Below are positions 4,163 through 12,111 of a stretch of DNA of 64,000 bases, one piece after another. The notes beneath the pieces are model-generated. The model was not told where the DNA came from, did not search any database, and was given only the letters and a program-made list of their open reading frames with translations. Source of the stretch: an uncultured Aliarcobacter sp. (GTDB lineage: Bacteria; Campylobacterota; Campylobacteria; Campylobacterales; Arcobacteraceae). The position numbers and the translations under genes are program-made. Location of the stretch: contig CAXXLV010000002.1 of the NCBI GenBank assembly GCA_963664305.2, positions 704,001-768,000 on the forward strand. Reading direction: 5' to 3'. The number at the start of each line of letters is the position of its first letter. Positions within the stretch are counted from its first letter, which is position 1.

Positions 4163-4336
4163 ATGAAAAAGATAACAAAGCTTTGTGGTACAAAGAAAAA
4201 TTATATCATCTTACCATTAGATGAAAAAATAAATTCAAATCAAATTTACTTTTGTAATAAATGTAAAAGGGAAACAAAAGAAAAAATTCTTTTATGTTAC
4301 CCAGAAATTAAAGAAGAAAAAGATTCAAATTCATAA
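4163..4336 (+). CDS. Small 57-aa Cys-containing protein (possible zinc ribbon)
   Basis: Manual translation MKKITKLCGTKKNYIILPLDEKINSNQIYFCNKCKRETKEKILLCYPEIKEEKDSNS; TATAAT near 4123; weak RBS; 3' end overlaps the convergent ORF. Confidence 0.5.
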   Translation: MKKITKLCGTKKNYIILPLDEKINSNQIYFCNKCKRETKEKILLCYPEIKEEKDSNS

Positions 4337-4743
4337 TTAAATTCTTCTTCAAAAATTTCATTCATACAAAATGTATATTTATATAAAGCATAAAACCAAG
4401 GTATAAATAAAATACCAAAGTATAAATAATCGCTATTTGAACTAAAAAAATAGTTTAGTTCAAAAAACAAATATCCTAAAGAATCAACCATTATTATTAA
4501 AAATAAAAAGACCCAAATATATTTAGAAAAATATCGTTTTTTATAAATATATCCTTTAATACTCAATATAGATATAAATGCTACAACTAAAAAGAAAAGA
4601 TCATAAATTCGTGAAAAAATATTTCCAAAAAAAAGTTTTTGCTCATTAACAAGTAAAAATCCTAATAAACATAATGAAGAAAATACTACAAACCAAAAAT
4701 AAATTTTCCAAAAAACAACTATTTTATTCATCAACTTTTCCAT
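4297..4743 (-). CDS. Hypothetical membrane protein (about 4 TM segments)
   Basis: Four hydrophobic stretches; preceded by a direct-repeat box and a TAGAAT -10. Start could be a few codons downstream. Confidence 0.65.
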   Translation of the reverse strand: MEKLMNKIVVFWKIYFWFVVFSSLCLLGFLLVNEQKLFFGNIFSRIYDLFFLVVAFISILSIKGYIYKKRYFSKYIWVFLFLIIMVDSLGYLFFELNYFFSSNSDYLYFGILFIPWFYALYKYTFCMNEIFEEEFNYEFESFSSLISG

Positions 4744-4763
4744 TCCTAATACTTAATTAAAAA

Positions 4764-4797
4764 ATTCTATCTAAAGCGCGTCACATATTCCGTCACA
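4764..4797 (-). promoter_or_regulatory. Direct-repeat operator TGTGACG-N5-TGTGACG, 9 nt spacer, -10 TAGAAT
   Basis: cgtcaca at 4779-4785 and 4791-4797; attcta at 4764-4769. Confidence 0.75.
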
Positions 4798-4806
4798 TTT
4801 TTTAAA

Positions 4807-5487
4807 TCAACAAATTCTACATCCAACATAAGGAATAGTTTCTATAAATTTATATTCTAATTTTGTTCTTAGTCTATAAATCAATGTTCTTAAAGTACTA
4901 TCTGAAATAATACTAGAGCCCCAAATTAAGCTTTCTAAATTATTAAAAGAGATAATTTGACCTTTTGATTCTAAAAGTATTTTTAAAAGTAATACTTCTT
5001 TTGAACCAAGATTTATTGGTAAAGATTTATAGTAAAGTTTATTTTCATCATTATTAAAATAATAATCTTCTCCAATATGAAGGAGATTATTATCATTAAA
5101 ATCTTCTTCAATATCTCTATTTTTATAAAGACCTAACATAATATTTGACTTTAATTCATCTCTTTTAAAAGGTTTTATCAAATAACTCACTGGTTTTGTT
5201 TGAATAGCTCTATTTATTGTCTCTTCATCAGAAAATGCAGTAAGAAAAATAATAGGAATATCATCAAAACTTTTTATTTTTTTTGCTGTTTCAATTCCAT
5301 CTTTACTTTTACCTAGATTTACATCCATTAAAATTAAATCAGGTTTATTCATCAATACACTATTAACTGCTCCTTGATAATCAAAAGCTGTATTAGTTAT
5401 CTCATAATCAAGTTTTTCTAATGTTCTTTTAATATCAAGAGCAACGATACTCTCATCTTCTACAATAAGTATTTTAGTTTTCTTCAT
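4807..5487 (-). CDS. OmpR-type response regulator (REC + winged helix), paralog 2
   Basis: LIVEDE, LMDVNL phospho-Asp, KPF, C-terminal STLRTLIYRLRTKL...G. Confidence 0.92.
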   Translation of the reverse strand: MKKTKILIVEDESIVALDIKRTLEKLDYEITNTAFDYQGAVNSVLMNKPDLILMDVNLGKSKDGIETAKKIKSFDDIPIIFLTAFSDEETINRAIQTKPVSYLIKPFKRDELKSNIMLGLYKNRDIEEDFNDNNLLHIGEDYYFNNDENKLYYKSLPINLGSKEVLLLKILLESKGQIISFNNLESLIWGSSIISDSTLRTLIYRLRTKLEYKFIETIPYVGCRIC

Positions 5488-5512
5488 AATTCCTACTTTT
5501 CATATTTAAAAA

Positions 5513-5546
5513 ATATTATCATTTTCATGTCACGATTCACGTCACA
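5513..5546 (-). promoter_or_regulatory. Direct-repeat operator TGTGACG-N5-CGTGACA, 9 nt spacer, -10 TAATAT
   Basis: tgtcacg at 5528-5534 and cgtcaca at 5540-5546; atatta at 5513-5518. Confidence 0.7.
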
Positions 5547-5549
5547 AAA

Positions 5550-6311
5550 TTATTCTTCTAAAAAAACTTTTTTAAAAAAATTTGATGCATTTGAAGGGTC
5601 ATAAGAAATTATTAGACAAGGTGTTTCTAAACTTCCATAAGATTCTAATTCTTTATATATTTCAACCCCACCTAGTTTTTTAAATAATTTCAAATGTTCT
5701 TGTCTTATTCCAGAAAGTGCAATATCAATATCATTATTCATAAATACGTTATATATCCCACACATTAAGTATTTAAACTCAAGATTTAGACCTTGACCTC
5801 TATTTTTTACAATATTTCTTGAGATTTCACCTATACAATTGTATTTATTTCTCATATCATCAAATGTAAATTTATTTTCAGAAGGAAGTTTGTTTTCTGA
5901 ATCAAAAATCAATCTTATTGTGGCTGACACTTCTTTATTATTTTTGTAATAAATAACTGCAGATGTTTTATCATAAATATCAAAATTTAATCCCTCTATC
6001 GTATCTGGAAATTCATCTTGATAATTAATTTCTGTAAAAACATCACTTCTTAGTTTAAAAACCTCTATTAACTCTTCTGCACTTTTTACTAAAGATAAAT
6101 TTTTATATTTATCTTCCCAAGATAATTTTCTATTAAAAGAAATTGTATCTTCTAAAATACTTTCTAAAAAAATCCTTTTTTGAAATATTTCTAAAGCATG
6201 TTTTTGTAATGAGATAAAAGAGTCAGGAAGATAAGCTTGTTTTGTTGAAATATCACTTTTGATAATTTCTTGAAGTTGATTTAGGGAAATGTTTTTATTT
6301 ATGTAAGCCAT
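5550..6311 (-). CDS. LuxI/FeeM-fold acyltransferase (N-acyl amino acid / autoinducer synthase-like)
   Basis: FKLRSDVF, FDIYD, ATIRL, GEISR match the conserved R/F, D/D, R and E-S-R pattern of acyl-ACP-dependent N-acyl synthases; about 70-aa N-terminal extension. Confidence 0.72.
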   Translation of the reverse strand: MAYINKNISLNQLQEIIKSDISTKQAYLPDSFISLQKHALEIFQKRIFLESILEDTISFNRKLSWEDKYKNLSLVKSAEELIEVFKLRSDVFTEINYQDEFPDTIEGLNFDIYDKTSAVIYYKNNKEVSATIRLIFDSENKLPSENKFTFDDMRNKYNCIGEISRNIVKNRGQGLNLEFKYLMCGIYNVFMNNDIDIALSGIRQEHLKLFKKLGGVEIYKELESYGSLETPCLIISYDPSNASNFFKKVFLEE

Positions 6312-6335
6312 TTGTTTGTCCTTTTTTTAGGACAA

Positions 6336-6369
6336 ACTTTATTAGAGAAACGTCACAGTTAGCGTCACA
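6336..6369 (-). promoter_or_regulatory. Direct-repeat operator TGTGACG-N5-TGTGACG, 9 nt spacer, -10 TAAAGT
   Basis: cgtcaca at 6351-6357 and 6363-6369; acttta at 6336-6341. Confidence 0.75.
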
Positions 6370-6380
6370 AAATGGGCTTT

Positions 6381-7073
6381 CTATGGACTTTTTGAGATTT
6401 TACATCCAATGCTTGAAATGGTTTCAATTATCTTATAATTTAGTTTTGTTCTTAGTCTATAAATTAAAGTTCGTAATGTACTATCACTAATTGGTGCATC
6501 TGGCCAGAGTATATATTCTAAATATTTAAAAGAGACTATATTACCTTTTGCCTCAACCAAAATAGTAAGCAATTTTTTCTCTTTTAGACTTAATTTTATA
6601 GGTTCAGATTTAAAAAAAAGAATTTCATTTTCTAAATCATAAAAATAATCAAAACCTAGTTTTTCATAAGAATTGTTATTATCAAAAGTTTGTGTTTTTA
6701 ATTTGTAAATACTTAATAGTAGTGTTGATTTAATATCTTCTTTTTTAAAAGGCTTTAAAATATAACCCAAAGGATTTGTTCTAATTGCTCGCTGAATAGT
6801 TTCTTCATCACTATATGCTGTTAGATAAACTACCGGTATAAACTTTTCTTTTTGTATCTCTTCAATAATATTTATTCCATCTTTTTCTTTTCCAAGGTTT
6901 ATATCTGAAAAAATAAGTTGAGGGGAATTATTTTTTACACTTTTTATTGCATCTTCAAAACTTGATACAATATCTACTACATCATGACCTAAATTATTAA
7001 TAATTCTTTTTATATCCAAAGCAACTATTGCTTCATCTTCAATTATTAAAATTTTTACATTATTCATCTTCAT
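6381..7073 (-). CDS. OmpR-type response regulator (REC + winged helix), paralog 1, coupled to the kinase
   Basis: LIIEDE, FSDINL, KPF, SDSTLRTLIYRLRTKL; overlaps the kinase stop codon. Confidence 0.92.
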   Translation of the reverse strand: MKMNNVKILIIEDEAIVALDIKRIINNLGHDVVDIVSSFEDAIKSVKNNSPQLIFSDINLGKEKDGINIIEEIQKEKFIPVVYLTAYSDEETIQRAIRTNPLGYILKPFKKEDIKSTLLLSIYKLKTQTFDNNNSYEKLGFDYFYDLENEILFFKSEPIKLSLKEKKLLTILVEAKGNIVSFKYLEYILWPDAPISDSTLRTLIYRLRTKLNYKIIETISSIGCKISKSP

Positions 7074-8901
7074 TCCACAAAATAGTCGTTGTTACACCAT
7101 TTTTAGAATTTATATCTATTTCACCTTTTAATTGACTAACTGCTAGAGTTTTTACCAAAGTAAAACCTAATGAAAAATTAACTTTTGATTCATCAAATCC
7201 TATTCCATCGTCTTTAATTGTTAATTTAATGTTTTCATTCTCTTTTTCTAAAGTTATAAAAATATTTCCTTTTTTATCTGGAAATGCATATTTAAATGAA
7301 TTTGTAATAAGTTCATTTATTATAAGTCCACAATAAATTGATTGTTCCATTTTTAGTTTTGTTTTTATATCCAAATGAATCTCTATAAAACTATCATAAC
7401 TTTCTCTTACTTCATCGATTAAAACTTCAAAATATTCATAAACATCAATATAATTTATATCATCTTGTTTATATAAAAGTTCGTGTAAATGACCCATTGC
7501 ACTAATTCGATTTTGAATAGTTAATAAAATATCTTTTAATTTTTCATTTTCTATTTCATCACTTTGAAGTCTAATCAAAGATACAATTGTTTGCATATTA
7601 TTTTTAACTCTATGATTTAACTCTTTTAGTAATAGTTCTTTTTCATCAAGTGCATTTTTTAAATCTTTTGTTCTTAAATTAACTTCATTTGATAGTCTTT
7701 TAGTTTCATTCTCTTTTTGAATAATCAATTTTTGATTAGCTTCATTTTTTTCTTTTTGAAGATTTGTTATTTTATTTGCTAAAGCTATTGAGAAAATTAT
7801 TGCTTCAATTACAAAAGATGCTTCAATTAAATAAGGAAAATATTTTTTTATATCAAATATTCCAGCACTTGATAAATACATCAAAAATCCAGAAGATAGG
7901 AAAATAATCCAAGCAAACAAAATAAAATATGCTTGTTTATTCTTTTTTAGAGTTGCATAAAGTGTAATTATCATTAAAAAAATCAAAAATAACATTGTAA
8001 AAGTATTTCTATATTTATCGTAATCATCAGTTACTAAAAAGAATATTATTGAAATTGGAATGAGAATTAAAAAACCATTTAAAACCATATTAAATTTTTT
8101 ATACTGTTTTGTTTGTAAAAAACTTTTTGTAAATAATCCTAAAGCATAAACAGGAATAGCAACTATAACAGAAGCAAAACTAACTATAGTAATTTTTTGT
8201 TCATAATTTAAAAAATAAACATTTGCAACACCTGTATACATCAAATGATGAATAATTAAACCTAGTATGTATATTACATAATATAAATAACTAATATCTC
8301 TTGTAAATAAGTAGATAAAAAAGTTATAAATCCCTAGAATAAACATTGCTCCAAAAAACAGAGAAAGAATTATTTGATGTTTTATCTCTTTTTTATAAAA
8401 ACTTTCTTCATCAAGAAGTTTTAAATCAATTATTAAAGTTGTTATAAATGATGATGCTTTTATAAAATAAGTATTTTCTTCATTTGGATTTAATTCAATA
8501 ACTAAAATTGGATTTATTACATAGTTATTAATATCTTCTGATAAAAGACCATCTTTTTGAGTGTAATTTTTATTTAAATCATAAAAATCTACATTTGTTG
8601 TAAGGGGATTGTTGTATTCAATTATTTTTTTTATGGCTTTGTTGGAATTATTCTTTAATTTAAATCTAATCCAAACATGAAAATTTGGAGAATAACCATA
8701 AGATAAAATATTTTTATCATTTTTTTCAAATTTTATATTTTGATTTTCTATATCTTTCAAAGTAAGATTTTTATTTTTATCTATATAAATTTCACTTTGA
8801 GAAAGGATATCTATTGTATTTGTATCTTCATTTATATTTATAACATTTGCAAAAATATTTGAAGACAAAAGCAATAAAAAGATTATTTTTAAATAGAACA
8901 T
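7060..8901 (-). CDS. 7TM-DISM sensor histidine kinase (HisKA_2 type)
   Basis: Signal peptide; extracellular DISMED2-like domain (YGYS..VWIRF); 7 TM; KELNHRVKNN H-box; NELITN; DDGIGF. Confidence 0.9.
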   Translation of the reverse strand: MFYLKIIFLLLLSSNIFANVININEDTNTIDILSQSEIYIDKNKNLTLKDIENQNIKFEKNDKNILSYGYSPNFHVWIRFKLKNNSNKAIKKIIEYNNPLTTNVDFYDLNKNYTQKDGLLSEDINNYVINPILVIELNPNEENTYFIKASSFITTLIIDLKLLDEESFYKKEIKHQIILSLFFGAMFILGIYNFFIYLFTRDISYLYYVIYILGLIIHHLMYTGVANVYFLNYEQKITIVSFASVIVAIPVYALGLFTKSFLQTKQYKKFNMVLNGFLILIPISIIFFLVTDDYDKYRNTFTMLFLIFLMIITLYATLKKNKQAYFILFAWIIFLSSGFLMYLSSAGIFDIKKYFPYLIEASFVIEAIIFSIALANKITNLQKEKNEANQKLIIQKENETKRLSNEVNLRTKDLKNALDEKELLLKELNHRVKNNMQTIVSLIRLQSDEIENEKLKDILLTIQNRISAMGHLHELLYKQDDINYIDVYEYFEVLIDEVRESYDSFIEIHLDIKTKLKMEQSIYCGLIINELITNSFKYAFPDKKGNIFITLEKENENIKLTIKDDGIGFDESKVNFSLGFTLVKTLAVSQLKGEIDINSKNGVTTTILWNEDE

Positions 8902-8949
8902 ATTAAATCCAGAATTTTAATCAGTTATTATACAAAATAACTACTCAAA

Positions 8950-10038
8950 TTAAAATTGCATAGACATATTCATCATAAAATTTGTCGAATCACCTTTTGT
9001 ATCTGAATAAATATAATAATCCTTATTTAAAATATTTTTAATACTTAAATCTACTTTTACATCTTCATCATTAATCTTAGTAAAGAAGATAGCTCCTAAA
9101 CTTCCAATAGCATAACTATTTAATTTATCGCTATTCAGATTATCACTATATCTACTTCCAACATAAGTAACTTTACTTATAAATTTTACATCTTTATATA
9201 AATATTCAGCTTTTAAATCCAACTCTTTTTGTGGAGAATATGTTGGAACATTTCCAATTAATTCTTGTAAATTACTATTTAAAACTTCAATATCTGAAAT
9301 TTTGGCAGTTGTTATAACTTTTAAATCTTTTGTTAAATCTTTTGTTAATGAAAATTCTAATCCTCTATATAACTCTTCTGAAGTTTGTAAATAATCTTCA
9401 CTTTCATCACTTTGCGATAAATAATGATTATCTTTTATTATTTGATAAAATGATGTATTAACTGTTGCAAAACCAAGTTCTGAAGTTACATTTAAACTAA
9501 GTTTTTTATTATTTGTATTTTTAAAACTTTGATTTACAAATTTATCATAATCTATACTATTGTTTAAATTTTCAAAACTTATGTTTGAAATGATTATTGA
9601 ATTTGGTTTAAAATATAACTTAACAGCTGATTCTTCTTTTACACTTTTCTTTTTATATGCAACTCCACCTGAAGTATCTATTGTACTTCTTATTGAATCT
9701 TTATAATTCATATTAAAATTCAACCACATATAATCATATAAATAAATGCTACTACTAAAAAGTAAATTATAAGAGTCTTCATTATAAATATCTTGGTTAT
9801 GATAATCTAAATAACTAGCATCTTCATAGCCTGCTTTACCCAATTTATATCTTAATGCATAATCAAATGTTTCTTGTTTTTTTCCCATTTTAAATTCAGC
9901 ATTTTCATCATCTAAATTTACTAATTTGAGATTATTAGTTATTAATTTACTATAAGTATTTATATAATTTATCTCTTTTGCTTGAAGATTTATAACAGTG
10001 AATGCCAATATAATAAAGTAAAAATATATTCTTAACAT
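8950..10038 (-). CDS. Short TonB-dependent receptor-like outer-membrane barrel protein
   Basis: Signal peptide; RGLEFSL, YVGSRYSD, KNILNKDY and terminal Phe, typical of TBDR C-termini; only 362 aa with no clear plug. Confidence 0.6.
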   Translation of the reverse strand: MLRIYFYFIILAFTVINLQAKEINYINTYSKLITNNLKLVNLDDENAEFKMGKKQETFDYALRYKLGKAGYEDASYLDYHNQDIYNEDSYNLLFSSSIYLYDYMWLNFNMNYKDSIRSTIDTSGGVAYKKKSVKEESAVKLYFKPNSIIISNISFENLNNSIDYDKFVNQSFKNTNNKKLSLNVTSELGFATVNTSFYQIIKDNHYLSQSDESEDYLQTSEELYRGLEFSLTKDLTKDLKVITTAKISDIEVLNSNLQELIGNVPTYSPQKELDLKAEYLYKDVKFISKVTYVGSRYSDNLNSDKLNSYAIGSLGAIFFTKINDEDVKVDLSIKNILNKDYYIYSDTKGDSTNFMMNMSMQF

Positions 10039-10203: not shown

Positions 10204-12111
10204 ATGAAAATATTACTTATTCTATTTGTACTTATTACTTCTTTATTTTCAAATGAAAAAAGAAATCTTACTTTACAACTAAATTGGTTAAATCAATTTC
10301 AATTTGCAGGTTATTATGTAGCAAAAGAAAAAGGTTTTTACAGAGATGTTGGATTAAATGTAACAATAAACGAGCTAAAAAATAAAACTGAATTAGTTGA
10401 AATGATAAAAGAAGAAAAAGCTGATTTTGCAATTGGGCGTTCATCTTTACTTCTAAATAAAATAAATGGTTATGATATTGTGGCTTTAGGAGCAATTTTT
10501 CAACACTCACCTTTGATGTTACTTACTACAAATGAAGAGATAAAAACTATATCAGATTTTAAAAATAAAAAAATCATGATTACACCTGATGCTGAATTTA
10601 CAGCTTCAATAATGGCAATGTTAAACTCAAATGGTATTTACAAAGAAAATGTAAATTTTATTACTCACTCTTTTAATCTTGATGATTTAATAAATAAAAA
10701 AACTGATTTAATGGCTTCTTATGTTTCAAATGAACCTATAAGACTTCAAGAAAAAGGCATAAAATATAAAATCTTTCATCCAAAAGATTATGGATTTGAT
10801 TTTTATAGTGATATTTTATTTACTTCATCAAAATTTATAAAAGAAAATCCAACAACTACTAAAAACTTTTATGAAGCAAGTTTAAAAGGTTGGGAATATG
10901 CTCTAAAAAATAAAGCAGAAACTGCAGAAATAATATATGAAAAATATAATTCTCAAAATAAATCTTTAATAAATATAATTAAAGAAGCTGAAGTTTTAGA
11001 AAAATTTATCATAAATGAAAATGACAATAAAATTGGTTGTTTAGATAGAACAAAACTAGAAAAAACTTTAGATGTATTTAAGGTGCTAGGACTTACAAGA
11101 GATAAACTAGATTTAGATTCTTTTATTTATGAAAATAATCATCATAAAAAAATCGTTTATGAATTAGATTATCAACAAAGAAATCTACTAATAATGTTAA
11201 TTATTTTTATGACTATTATTTTTATTTTGATTATTTATTTTTTAAAAAGAATTCATAATAAAAAAAATTTACTTAATGCTGTTATTAATACAAGTGATGA
11301 TTTAATTTATTATAAAAATCAAAATTTAAAATATATAGGTTGTAATGATGCATTTAAAAAACTTGCTAATAAAACTGAAAATGAAATTATAGGAAAAGAT
11401 GATTTTGAGATTTTTGATAAAAAATATGCACAGGTATTTAGAGAAAATGATTTAAAAGTTCTAAAATCAAAAGAGTTAATAATCCAAGAAGAGTGGTTTG
11501 AGATTGATAATAAAATGTTACTTTTTCAATCTAAAAAAAGACCTTTGAAATGTATGGGTGCACAAATAGGAATTTTAGGAGTTAGTAGAGATATCACAAG
11601 TTTATATGAAACTCAAAAAAAACTAGAAGAACAAGCAACAATGGATGAACTTACAAAAGTTTATAATAGAAAATCTTTTAATGAAAGATTAAAAGAAAAA
11701 GTTGAATTGTTCAAAAGATATGAAAGTTATTTTTGTATTGCATTATTTGATATTGATGATTTTAAATATGTAAATGATAATTATGGACATGATGTTGGAG
11801 ATAAAGTTTTAATAGAAGTTTGTGAAATAGCTAAACAACATATAAGAAATACTGATTTACTTTTTAGAGTTGGTGGAGAAGAGTTTATTATTTTATATCC
11901 AAAAACTTTAATAGATGAAGCCTATTTATCTATTGATAAAATTAGAAATTTAATAAAATGTACAACCATAATAGAAAATCATCCTATTACAGTTAGTGTA
12001 GGTTTAACTCAAATACATAAAAATGATGATGAAGAATCTATATTTAAAAGAATTGATGATTTAATGTATCAATCTAAAAGAACAGGAAAAGATAAAATTA
12101 CGATTGATTAA
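10204..12111 (+). CDS. Diguanylate cyclase with NMT1/THI5-like periplasmic domain and PAS domain
   Basis: LQLNWLNQFQFAGYY; one TM; PAS; DIDDFK..ND.YGH..GD; GGEEF. Confidence 0.9.
   Translation: MKILLILFVLITSLFSNEKRNLTLQLNWLNQFQFAGYYVAKEKGFYRDVGLNVTINELKNKTELVEMIKEEKADFAIGRSSLLLNKINGYDIVALGAIFQHSPLMLLTTNEEIKTISDFKNKKIMITPDAEFTASIMAMLNSNGIYKENVNFITHSFNLDDLINKKTDLMASYVSNEPIRLQEKGIKYKIFHPKDYGFDFYSDILFTSSKFIKENPTTTKNFYEASLKGWEYALKNKAETAEIIYEKYNSQNKSLINIIKEAEVLEKFIINENDNKIGCLDRTKLEKTLDVFKVLGLTRDKLDLDSFIYENNHHKKIVYELDYQQRNLLIMLIIFMTIIFILIIYFLKRIHNKKNLLNAVINTSDDLIYYKNQNLKYIGCNDAFKKLANKTENEIIGKDDFEIFDKKYAQVFRENDLKVLKSKELIIQEEWFEIDNKMLLFQSKKRPLKCMGAQIGILGVSRDITSLYETQKKLEEQATMDELTKVYNRKSFNERLKEKVELFKRYESYFCIALFDIDDFKYVNDNYGHDVGDKVLIEVCEIAKQHIRNTDLLFRVGGEEFIILYPKTLIDEAYLSIDKIRNLIKCTTIIENHPITVSVGLTQIHKNDDEESIFKRIDDLMYQSKRTGKDKITID

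Follow-up and report, generated by a model that had tools for sequence, protein, structure and literature searches.

A conserved kinase, regulator and FeeM/LuxI-clade synthase cluster in Arcobacteraceae, a candidate for a new cell-to-cell signalling system

Does this Aliarcobacter locus encode a system that both produces an acyl signal and senses it? Within the 64-kb window (the whole stretch of DNA analysed, 64,000 nucleotides), a sequence-only reading had proposed a six-gene autoinduction circuit comprising a LuxI/FeeM-like synthase, a 7TM-DISM kinase and two OmpR regulators, without LuxR. The six co-oriented genes that it described were all recovered as minus-strand open reading frames, in the same places, spanning 4297-10038. 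The features of the locus, with the evidence for each, are as follows:

8950..10038, minus strand: plug-less TonB-dependent-receptor-like outer-membrane barrel, 362 aa (open reading frame, sub-threshold receptor matches, atlas look-alikes)
8927..8934, minus strand: extended -10-like TGTATAAT, 25 nt upstream of the kinase ATG (read from the sequence)
7060..8901, minus strand: 7TMR-DISM/HisKA_2 sensor histidine kinase, 613 aa (Pfam)
6381..7073, minus strand: RR1, OmpR/PhoB-type response regulator (Response_reg and Trans_reg_C)
6351..6368, minus strand: operator 1, GTGACG-N6-GTGACG, 39 nt upstream of the synthase ATG (pattern search)
6314..6337, minus strand: leader stem-loop pairing with the synthase Shine-Dalgarno sequence (folding, covariation)
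5550..6311, minus strand: FeeM/LuxI-clade GNAT acyl synthase, 253 aa (PF21926, profile, fold)
5528..5545, minus strand: operator 2, GTGACG-N6-GTGACA, upstream of RR2 and followed by extended -10 TGATAATAT (pattern search)
4807..5487, minus strand: RR2, operator-preceded paralogue of RR1 (Response_reg and Trans_reg_C)
4779..4796, minus strand: operator 3, GTGACG-N6-GTGACG, upstream of the 4-TM gene (pattern search)
4297..4743, minus strand: 4-TM membrane protein, 148 aa (open reading frame, hydrophobic stretches)

Membership of the synthase in the FeeM/LuxI clade is supported by both sequence and fold, in keeping with its initial identification. The protein matched the Pfam family PF21926 (FeeM) at 72.4 bits against a cut-off of 27, and its profile retrieved FeeM (1.4e-10) and LasI (8.6e-8) from the PDB; an AF2 model (pLDDT 91.3) returned FeeM, LasI, RpaI and BjaI as top Foldseek ranks. 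The four LuxI/FeeM-pattern motifs picked out previously are all present (LRSDVF 87-92, DIYD 111-114, IRL 132-134, EISR 162-165) and align with those of LasI in a profile alignment, with R88, D111, D114, R133, E162 and R165 falling on invariant or near-invariant columns of a 55-sequence alignment. E162, the catalytic-Glu equivalent, is invariant across all 55 and aligns with the FeeM Glu, which the available portion of PMC4897644 describes as essential by mutagenesis of a homologue. The N-terminus of the model carries a family-specific two-helix extension of ~65 aa.

Upstream lies a kinase with periplasmic 7TMR-DISMED2, 7TMR-DISM_7TM (7TM bundle), HisKA_2 and HATPase_c domains, all over Pfam cut-offs, and an H-box, HRVKNN, visible in the translation; we know of no lipid among the ligands reported for 7TMR-DISMED2 sensors, a point against sensing of an acyl product. 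The RR1 gene overlaps the kinase stop by 14 nt and its product has D57. RR1 and RR2 are 50% identical, with an identical recognition-helix stretch, and the REC domains of both best match the PhyR-type REC (NF006623), a type that partners with HisKA_2/HWE kinases. The PF03472 profile (Autoind_bind, LuxR-type receptor) found no match in the 99.96%-complete genome, with an E. coli control matching, bearing out the proposed absence of LuxR.

The linkage of the synthase to two-component genes, on which the sequence-only reading had staked its proposal, recurs in other genomes. The synthase was found in 66 of 184 Arcobacteraceae genomes (12 of 22 genera), and in every one of the 66 the sensor half of the kinase has a match of orthologue grade (E <= 1.6e-69). 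Of 45 loci, 43 have the kinase no more than 3 kb from the synthase and 44 have a regulator that close, with at least two regulators in 25 of 45 and RR2 in about half. The genes also sit together in a second family (4 of 5 loci) and at both MAG loci of ~40% identity (Nitratifractor and a 'Campylobacteraceae' bin), and two genomes (G090 and G129) have a second synthase at a different position, on another contig, with a second kinase beside it. Because the family genomes are related to one another, these counts overstate independence.

The conserved unit is smaller than first described: it consists of kinase, regulator and synthase (three genes, or four with RR2), and 'six-gene circuit' overstates it. 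Of 20 wider loci, just 2 have the barrel protein encoded next to the kinase and just 3, in close relatives, have the 4-TM gene adjacent, so both are peripheral rather than core parts. The former has a signal-peptide-like N-terminus and a C-terminal Phe; Pfam searches gave no match, sub-threshold matches fell on the C-terminal barrel of TonB-dependent receptors, and its atlas look-alikes are TonB_dep_Rec_b-barrel proteins of ~380-400 aa (score 0.95, 10 of the 10 best matches agreeing). The latter shows four hydrophobic stretches and drew no match in family searches; it is a member of the regulon, and in G042 its homologue sits elsewhere in the genome behind its own operator.

That regulon is defined by the direct repeat GTGACR-N6-GTGACR. 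Three copies occur in the window, all on the minus strand, against 0.10 expected from shuffles (none of 100 shuffled windows contained three), and they sit in the promoters of the synthase, RR2 and 4-TM genes, confirming the shared operator noted before the last three genes. Between the repeat and the downstream -10 are 6-8 nt, which places the repeat where a -35 element would be. Genome-wide there are six operators, against none for a reversed control, and all six precede a same-strand start codon, five of them at 35-46 nt and the sixth at 41 nt, provided that translation of its gene begins at the second in-frame ATG. Of the 45 loci, 31 have a strict match 36-48 nt ahead of the synthase start, whereas such a match occurs in 1.7% of 130-nt windows drawn at random from these loci; 36 have an operator upstream of the synthase when up to one mismatch is allowed. 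Within the genus, 15 of 20 kinase-positive genomes have operators (100 sites) versus 3 of 24 kinase-negative genomes (5 sites), while the reversed pattern gave 2 sites in all 44. The operator is real, conserved at the synthase promoter in many genera and dependent in its occurrence on the presence of the kinase, and there is good support for the two-component system controlling the synthase. The pattern had no match in the kinase promoter region, where TGTATAAT probably acts as an operator-independent promoter for kinase and RR1. The leader stem-loop is unusually stable (-13.2 kcal/mol, z = -5.38; none of 200 shuffles as stable), with at least one compensatory change in each of its five consensus pairs and variants visible in the arms.

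We tentatively favour a self-contained module of production and sensing, in which the product of the synthase is sensed by the kinase and feeds back positively on its own production. An operator-less promoter would supply kinase and RR1; phosphorylated RR1, presumably the regulator in question, would bind the repeat and turn on the synthase, RR2 and a small set of envelope proteins, and RR2, with the same DNA-recognition helix, could amplify the response. The synthase would most likely take a fatty acyl chain from acyl-ACP or acyl-CoA and attach it to an amino acid, yielding a diffusible N-acyl amide; an AHL-like product is less probable. The stem-loop over the Shine-Dalgarno sequence may curb leaky translation. 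Once released, the acyl product would enter the membrane or periplasm and be detected by the kinase, closing the loop. Autoinduction requires this last step, which above all the others is one that we purely infer.

A close rival, itself a real possibility if a slightly more doubtful one, is that the loop is open: the kinase would respond to something outside the cell or in its envelope, such as a carbohydrate, an ion or membrane stress, and the synthase would be an output, via the operator, whose product is not sensed. That N-acyl product might be a membrane aminolipid, a surfactant or an antimicrobial which, alongside the membrane proteins under the same control, would reshape or shield the envelope. 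The rivalry is close because 14 genomes keep the kinase without the synthase and because the regulon is mostly envelope proteins. These 14, out of 80 genomes with an orthologue-grade kinase, count against autoinduction and imply that the two-component system is not strictly dependent on its own synthase: G014 and G013 retain kinase, regulator and operator intact, with the operator in G014 preceding a lipoprotein/Sel1 operon in place of the synthase, and G042 has stop codons in the synthase yet keeps nine operators. Outside the locus, most regulon products are membrane proteins, lipoproteins or SPFH proteins, with a Band_7/SPFH operon present in two genomes; 21 of 26 scanned proteins had no Pfam match at E <= 0.01. 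Envelope remodelling accounts for this content no less well than group behaviour does. At E <= 1, 49 of 55 synthase homologues also match PF13444 (Acetyltransf_5), to which the aminolipid N-acyltransferases OlsB and GlsB belong, and operons joining a two-component system to a lipid-modifying enzyme exist, such as pmrCAB. Those NAS products that have been characterised serve as surfactants or antibiotics, as far as the available parts of PMC4897644 and PMC13635244 describe them. Against an open loop, the synthase is the sole always-adjacent conserved target, never occurs without the kinase and keeps the LuxI-type residue set; the two complete kinase-synthase pairs in G090 and G129 are easier to understand as orthogonal signal channels; and 12 window-derived queries revealed no second conserved acyltransferase or exporter among the flanking ORFs of other loci.

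Two further readings concern what the enzyme acylates. The same circuit could run on an acyl-homoserine lactone or related lactone made by a SAM-using, LuxI-like enzyme and sensed by the membrane kinase in the manner of LuxM/LuxN. The conserved LuxI signature positions (R88, F92, D111, D114, R133 and E162-x-S-R165) point that way, as do a LasI alignment spanning the N-terminal motif region (profile positions 70-198, where that of FeeM begins only at 113), weak PF00765 matches in 12 of 55 homologues (best E 1.8e-4) and the source label 'AHL synthetase' on one distant homologue. We nevertheless think it improbable, given that the synthase itself had no PF00765 match at E <= 1, that FeeM ranks above LasI by profile and fold, and that a Tyr occupies the LuxI Trp position in the LasI profile alignment. 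More improbable still is that no free small molecule is made and a protein or other envelope substrate from the regulon is acylated: secreted proteins and lipoproteins without assigned function are abundant there and the two-helix extension is family-specific, but among regulon proteins the synthase alone is conserved across genera, and the FeeM/LuxI-clade enzymes characterised in the available parts of PMC4897644 and PMC12856293 all acylate small amines.

Set against known systems, the synthase is closest in profile and fold to FeeM, from the eDNA fee cluster, with the catalytic Glu kept in both. FeeM is likewise a single-domain GNAT needing no other biosynthetic gene, according to the part of PMC4897644 available. 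Unlike FeeM, the Arcobacter enzyme has the N-terminal extension, conserves LuxI-type N-terminal residues and has a kinase, a regulator and an operator of its own. LuxI-type enzymes (LasI, PDB 1RO5) are second-best on both counts and share the R/F/D/D/R/E-x-S-R signature, and a regulator site at the synthase promoter would permit positive feedback as in LuxI/LuxR; in contrast, the synthase fails PF00765, the genome lacks Autoind_bind and the candidate receptor is a histidine kinase. In LuxM/LuxN, AinS/AinR, CqsA/CqsS and LqsA/LqsS, a synthase gene likewise neighbours that of a polytopic membrane kinase, which detects a lipophilic signal without LuxR; these use other synthase families and another kinase sensor domain, and their kinases feed phosphorelays, whereas in Arcobacter a defined operator would be the direct target of the OmpR-type regulators. 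The PEP-CTERM/exosortase-associated NAS (TIGR03694), reportedly described by Craig et al. in 2011 (a reference given in PMC4897644 and PMC11072679), is similarly a FeeM-family enzyme tied genetically to a regulatory/envelope system; our synthase scores only 25.2 bits against that model's cut-off of 111.95, and exosortase searches of the genome, with a matching control, found none. Amino acid N-acylation is also the first step towards the oxazolone lipids of OxzA, TyzA and TrzA, for which the authors suggest a signalling role, although these pathways need a ThiF-like cyclase/oxidase partner (PMC12856293, in the part available). No such partner was found among the eight window proteins scanned, nor did one recur in the wider loci with the queries used.

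The DISMED2 and 7TM sensor architecture of the kinase is shared with RetS, LadS and NicD of Pseudomonas, which are 7TMR-DISM sensors; the Arcobacter output differs in being a HisKA_2 kinase with OmpR-type partners. A NicD-type role is listed in a table of PMC6690266, in the part of that paper available. For this sensor class, a lipid ligand supplied by a neighbouring gene would be new. A literature search found no publication on such a system, in line with the sequence-only reading, which knew of none in Campylobacterota, and we regard the Arcobacter cluster as a strong candidate, still unproven, for a new system of signalling between cells.

The locus lies in a 2.78-Mb genome (99.96% complete) and comprises six ORFs between 4297 and 10038, which the sequence-only reading had described as co-oriented and which are indeed all on the minus strand.

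Genes of the locus in order of transcription (window coordinates)
8950-10038, minus strand: barrel gene; without a Pfam family, sub-threshold likeness to the barrel half of TonB-dependent receptors
7060-8901, minus strand: kinase; 7TMR-DISMED2, 7TMR-DISM_7TM, HisKA_2 and HATPase_c (Pfam)
6381-7073, minus strand: first response regulator (RR1); Response_reg and Trans_reg_C (Pfam)
5550-6311, minus strand: synthase; PF21926 (FeeM), 72.4 bits against a curated cut-off of 27
4807-5487, minus strand: second response regulator (RR2); Response_reg and Trans_reg_C (Pfam)
4297-4743, minus strand: gene for a protein with four transmembrane segments (4-TM); without family

The kinase and RR1 genes overlap by 14 nt. 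All Pfam domains of the kinase score above cut-off and its H-box, read in translation, is HRVKNN; both regulators carry a winged-helix domain and an acceptor aspartate (D57 in RR1, D55 in RR2), and the best match of both REC domains is the PhyR-type REC, which pairs with HisKA_2 kinases. By these features, kinase and regulators make up a HisKA_2/OmpR-type two-component system. The barrel product has short, plug-less TBDR-like barrels as its look-alikes in an atlas search, in which the 4-TM protein had no match at 0.9 or above. Divergent from the barrel gene lies a 635-aa ORF (10204-12111, plus strand) that combines a periplasmic NMT1/THI5-like binding domain with PAS and GGDEF domains; the closest relative is the only other genome to keep it there.

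The synthase matches PF21926 with E = 4.7e-20, and this model is matched by 54 of the 55 sequences in our homologue alignment (Acetyltransf_5 by 49). The LuxI model PF00765 gives weak matches in 12 of the 55 and none to the window's synthase at E <= 1; on these matches together with alignment and fold (below), we filed the enzyme as a FeeM-family N-acyl synthase. The family is narrow: a search of 1.84 billion proteins yields 125 representative clusters at E <= 1e-3. The window's member is 87% identical to Abu_1165 of A. butzleri RM4018 and to an A. defluvii protein, and its genome falls in Arcobacter/Aliarcobacter by the names of close homologues. A profile of 43 distant homologues retrieved 26 proteins, three of them with source labels, one of the labels reading AHL synthetase. 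LuxI enzymes share a conserved set of Arg, Phe, Trp, Asp, Asp, Arg and Glu-x-Ser-Arg. The motifs singled out from sequence alone (LRSDVF, DIYD, IRL, EISR) correspond to positions R88, D111, D114, R133, E162 and R165 and withstood alignment: R88 and E162 are invariant across the 55 sequences, and D111, D114, S117, R133 and R165 are conserved in at least 90%. In alignment with LasI they pair with KLRAQVF, IDGYD, WRI and ELSRF, so that R88, F92, D111, D114, R133 and E162-I-S-R165 all find a counterpart, with Tyr97 at the position of the LuxI Trp; as residues of this type also occur in FeeM-family relatives, they do not discriminate between the two families. E162 also aligns with the catalytic glutamate of FeeM (Glu95 equivalent), and the equivalent residue is described as essential in the homologue Nas354 (PMC4897644).

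Among solved structures, a profile of the alignment found FeeM (2g0b, 1.4e-10) and then LasI (1ro5, 8.6e-8), and a single-sequence phmmer search of the PDB returned no match. An AlphaFold (AF2) model of the synthase (pLDDT 91.3, pTM 0.85) gave the same two structures as top Foldseek matches (2g0b 7.8e-10, 1ro5 2.5e-8), and the best folds, FeeM, LasI, RpaI, BjaI, TofI, MesI and EsaI, ranked ahead of or among generic GNATs; the modelled enzyme is thus predicted to adopt the GNAT fold of FeeM/AHL-synthase type. Residues 6-62 of the model form two long helices absent from FeeM and LuxI. This N-terminal extension (residues 1-65; lower model confidence over the first ~40) is conserved in kinase-linked orthologues and is missing from FeeM, LuxI and short homologues. 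Most likely, the acyl acceptor is an amino acid and, with fair confidence, we predict a free N-acyl amide as the product; a SAM-derived lactone is a possible alternative.

We rejected a LuxI/LuxR pair, given the unmatched LuxI model and the lack of an Autoind_bind receptor: PF03472 was not found in the 99.96%-complete genome, in agreement with the initial claim that there is no LuxR, and a control search matched E. coli. The PEP-CTERM/exosortase-linked NAS family (TIGR03694) was likewise rejected, at 25.2 bits against a cut-off of 111.95, and exosortase (PF09721) was not found in the genome by a search whose control matched. An oxazolone pathway was dismissed, no partner enzyme being seen at the locus or in wider loci, where flanking ORFs are partly annotated. 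The layout works like the LuxM/LuxN and CqsA/CqsS quorum systems, which combine a synthase with a membrane kinase, but differs from them in its FeeM-family synthase, 7TMR-DISM/HisKA_2 sensor and direct OmpR-type output.

The direct repeat GTGACR-N6-GTGACR, proposed earlier as one operator before the last three genes, occurs three times in the 64-kb window against 0.10 expected, and only at the synthase, RR2 and 4-TM promoters, which upholds the proposal. The recognition-helix stretches of RR1 and RR2 are identical, and the operator is therefore possibly bound by either or both. Across 45 genomes, one locus each and the window included, a strict operator lies upstream of the synthase start in 31 loci, and in 36 with one mismatch or fewer, against 1.7% of 130-nt stretches drawn at random from these loci for the strict form. 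The distance to the ATG could be measured in 30 loci and is 36-48 nt in 29; in divergent clades the operator takes TTGAC-type or 11-bp-period forms. Between its end and an extended -10, e.g. TGATAATAT or TGTTAAAAT, there are 6-8 nt, which puts the operator where a -35 element would stand. In PhoB-like regulators such geometry points to activation, and by analogy the operator position suggests activation here. A generic sigma-70 scan in this AT-rich DNA was uninformative (42 sites, 56.8 expected).

Within the 5' leader of the synthase, a conserved hairpin (6314-6337, minus strand; -13.2 kcal/mol, z = -5.4) pairs with the Shine-Dalgarno sequence and shows compensatory changes at all five consensus pairs. 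From genus to genus its two arms vary in concert (GTCC/GGAC, ATCC/GGAT, CTCC/GGAG), and its opposite strand scores as terminator-like. The stem-loop may gate translation or serve as a palindromic site for a protein.

Genome-wide, the window's genome holds six operator sites and the reversed-motif control none, each of the six in the right orientation ahead of a start codon. Five lie 35-46 nt from it; the sixth (in fetched locus L002) lies at 41 nt only if the second in-frame ATG starts the gene, the first possible ATG being 5 nt away. Three sites are off-locus, one before an 86-aa secreted-looking protein with two lipoprotein paralogues, the others before proteins of ~120 aa and 236 aa, the latter a membrane protein, and no Pfam family was found for the products after any of these three. 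Just upstream of the small secreted-protein/lipoprotein cluster is an Imm70 immunity gene (PF15601, 88.6 bits; L001:1884-2318, minus strand, near 91 kb of contig C2). The off-locus targets found in genome G014 and in three more genomes that are complete are for the most part genes of uncharacterised membrane proteins, secreted proteins or lipoproteins; 21 of 26 regulon proteins scanned had no Pfam match at E <= 0.01, and recurrent members include a Band_7/SPFH operon (two genomes), ~230-aa and ~335-aa membrane proteins and homologues of the 4-TM protein. A gene for a GmrSD-type restriction endonuclease (PF03235, 116.9 bits; L090:545-2467, minus strand, genome G042) is the first ORF past an operator and -10, its distance of 134 nt exceeding that of other targets.

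Within the genus, the motif was present in 15 of 20 kinase-positive genomes (100 sites) and in 3 of 24 kinase-negative ones (5 sites), a contrast that covers related genomes and is not a statistical test; the reversed motif gave two sites in all 44. Four of the five kinase-positive genomes lacking the motif carry a divergent kinase clade (48% identity) and the fifth a frameshifted-looking kinase and regulator, and the three kinase-negative genomes with the motif are all incomplete assemblies (65%, 74% and 95%). This cross-tabulation supports a predicted tie between operator and two-component system, and very probably the synthase, RR2 and a small envelope regulon are under the control of this system, exerted through the direct repeat.

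The synthase occurs in 66 of 184 Arcobacteraceae genomes and 12 of 22 genera, and all 66 encode an orthologue-grade kinase sensor half (E <= 1.6e-69, as against E >= 1e-47 for paralogous 7TMR-DISM kinases). Linkage of synthase and two-component genes in other genomes, the test by which the sequence-only reading had proposed to be judged, held: within 3 kb of the synthase lay the kinase in 43 of 45 loci (the exceptions being genome G388 and a locus truncated where its contig ends), at least one regulator in 44 and at least two in 25. As a six-gene circuit the proposal stood in part: the linkage of kinase, regulator and synthase is conserved, but the barrel accompanied them in only 2, and the 4-TM gene in only 3, of 20 loci with ~8-kb flanks, close relatives in each case. 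In a phylum sample of 401 genomes, strong synthase orthologues were confined to Arcobacteraceae and one second family (f11; 5 of 19 genomes), and the two largest families in the sample had none (0 of 118, 0 of 158). Four of the five loci from the second family retain kinase, regulator and synthase together, and in two MAG loci (Nitratifractor sp. and 'Campylobacteraceae bacterium') a regulator and a 7TMR-DISM kinase adjoin a synthase ~41-42% identical to the window's. Genomes G090 and G129 each hold two synthase copies on different contigs and at different positions, each with its own adjacent kinase; G066 has two weaker synthase matches. In G022 the whole kinase-regulator-synthase locus and surrounding operators appear twice (contigs C8 and C11) with identical scores and spacing. 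This repetition, a large duplication event of recent date or else a duplicate arising in assembly, inflates that genome's operator count to 21.

Four other Campylobacterota families encode weaker ~200-aa FeeM-like proteins lacking the N-terminal extension. These we rejected as members of the system, since tblastn found no kinase or regulator within ~7 kb at any of nine loci from three families. A GGDEF-like match lies in the flanks of eight of these nine loci (L062-L070), ~3.5-4 kb from the GNAT where both were mapped, and the short GNATs may belong to a different module tied to c-di-GMP.

Conversely, 14 genomes carry an orthologue-grade kinase and no synthase match. Of eleven such loci inspected, which come from ten genomes, eight look intact. 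The other three look broken: HSPs are split in L073 and L077, and the regulator match is truncated in L079. At the synthase-promoter position an operator is kept in G014 and G013, and in G014 its targets are genes for a lipoprotein, a membrane protein and a Sel1-repeat protein. Stop codons or a split interrupt the synthase of G042, G089 and G163, and G042 keeps nine operators despite its broken synthase. The broken synthases and loci suggest that some lineages are losing the module piecemeal.

The operator at the synthase promoter gives the circuit the potential for feedback. If the kinase senses the synthase product, the loop is closed and the system autoinduces; if it senses another cue, the synthase is merely one output of an open-loop envelope or effector programme. 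We slightly favour the closed loop, while giving it somewhat less than an even chance, because the synthase, unlike any other target, is always adjacent, because it never occurs without the kinase, because duplicated systems come as matched pairs, because the sensor's 7-TM bundle suits an amphiphile and because the enzyme belongs to an autoinducer-synthase clade. A self-activating circuit would also need a brake, and a hairpin over the Shine-Dalgarno sequence would gate translation of the synthase. Kinases without a synthase fit receptor-only 'eavesdroppers' under the closed loop, and equally a kinase that senses something else, as the open loop would have it; we consider the open loop a close second. 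The closed loop in its fullest form, to which we also give somewhat less than an even chance, would be an undescribed class of quorum sensing, in which an N-acyl amino acid made by a FeeM-type synthase is the autoinducer and a 7TMR-DISM kinase its sensor, two paralogous OmpR regulators sharing one operator provide feed-forward amplification, and synthase-less 'solo' receptor strains eavesdrop.

What is new is the conserved wiring. As the sequence-only reading had supposed, a full-text literature search found no paper on a system of this layout in Campylobacterota, and no description of a dedicated cell-to-cell signalling system in Arcobacteraceae. To our knowledge, 7TMR-DISM receptors mostly lack known ligands; here, one is joined to a FeeM-family synthase, a defined operator and a small regulon in a module that at least 12 genera of one family share with a second family and with two Campylobacterota MAGs further removed, making the hypothesis of an N-acyl amide as a signal with its own receptor directly testable. 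An open loop would provide a clean model for kinase-controlled production of an aminolipid or surfactant. A closed loop would constitute a dedicated cell-to-cell signalling system in Arcobacteraceae and, should the full quorum-sensing scheme prove true, would provide both orphan families with their first physiological ligand-receptor pair, in a group that includes the emerging pathogen A. butzleri with its homologue Abu_1165.
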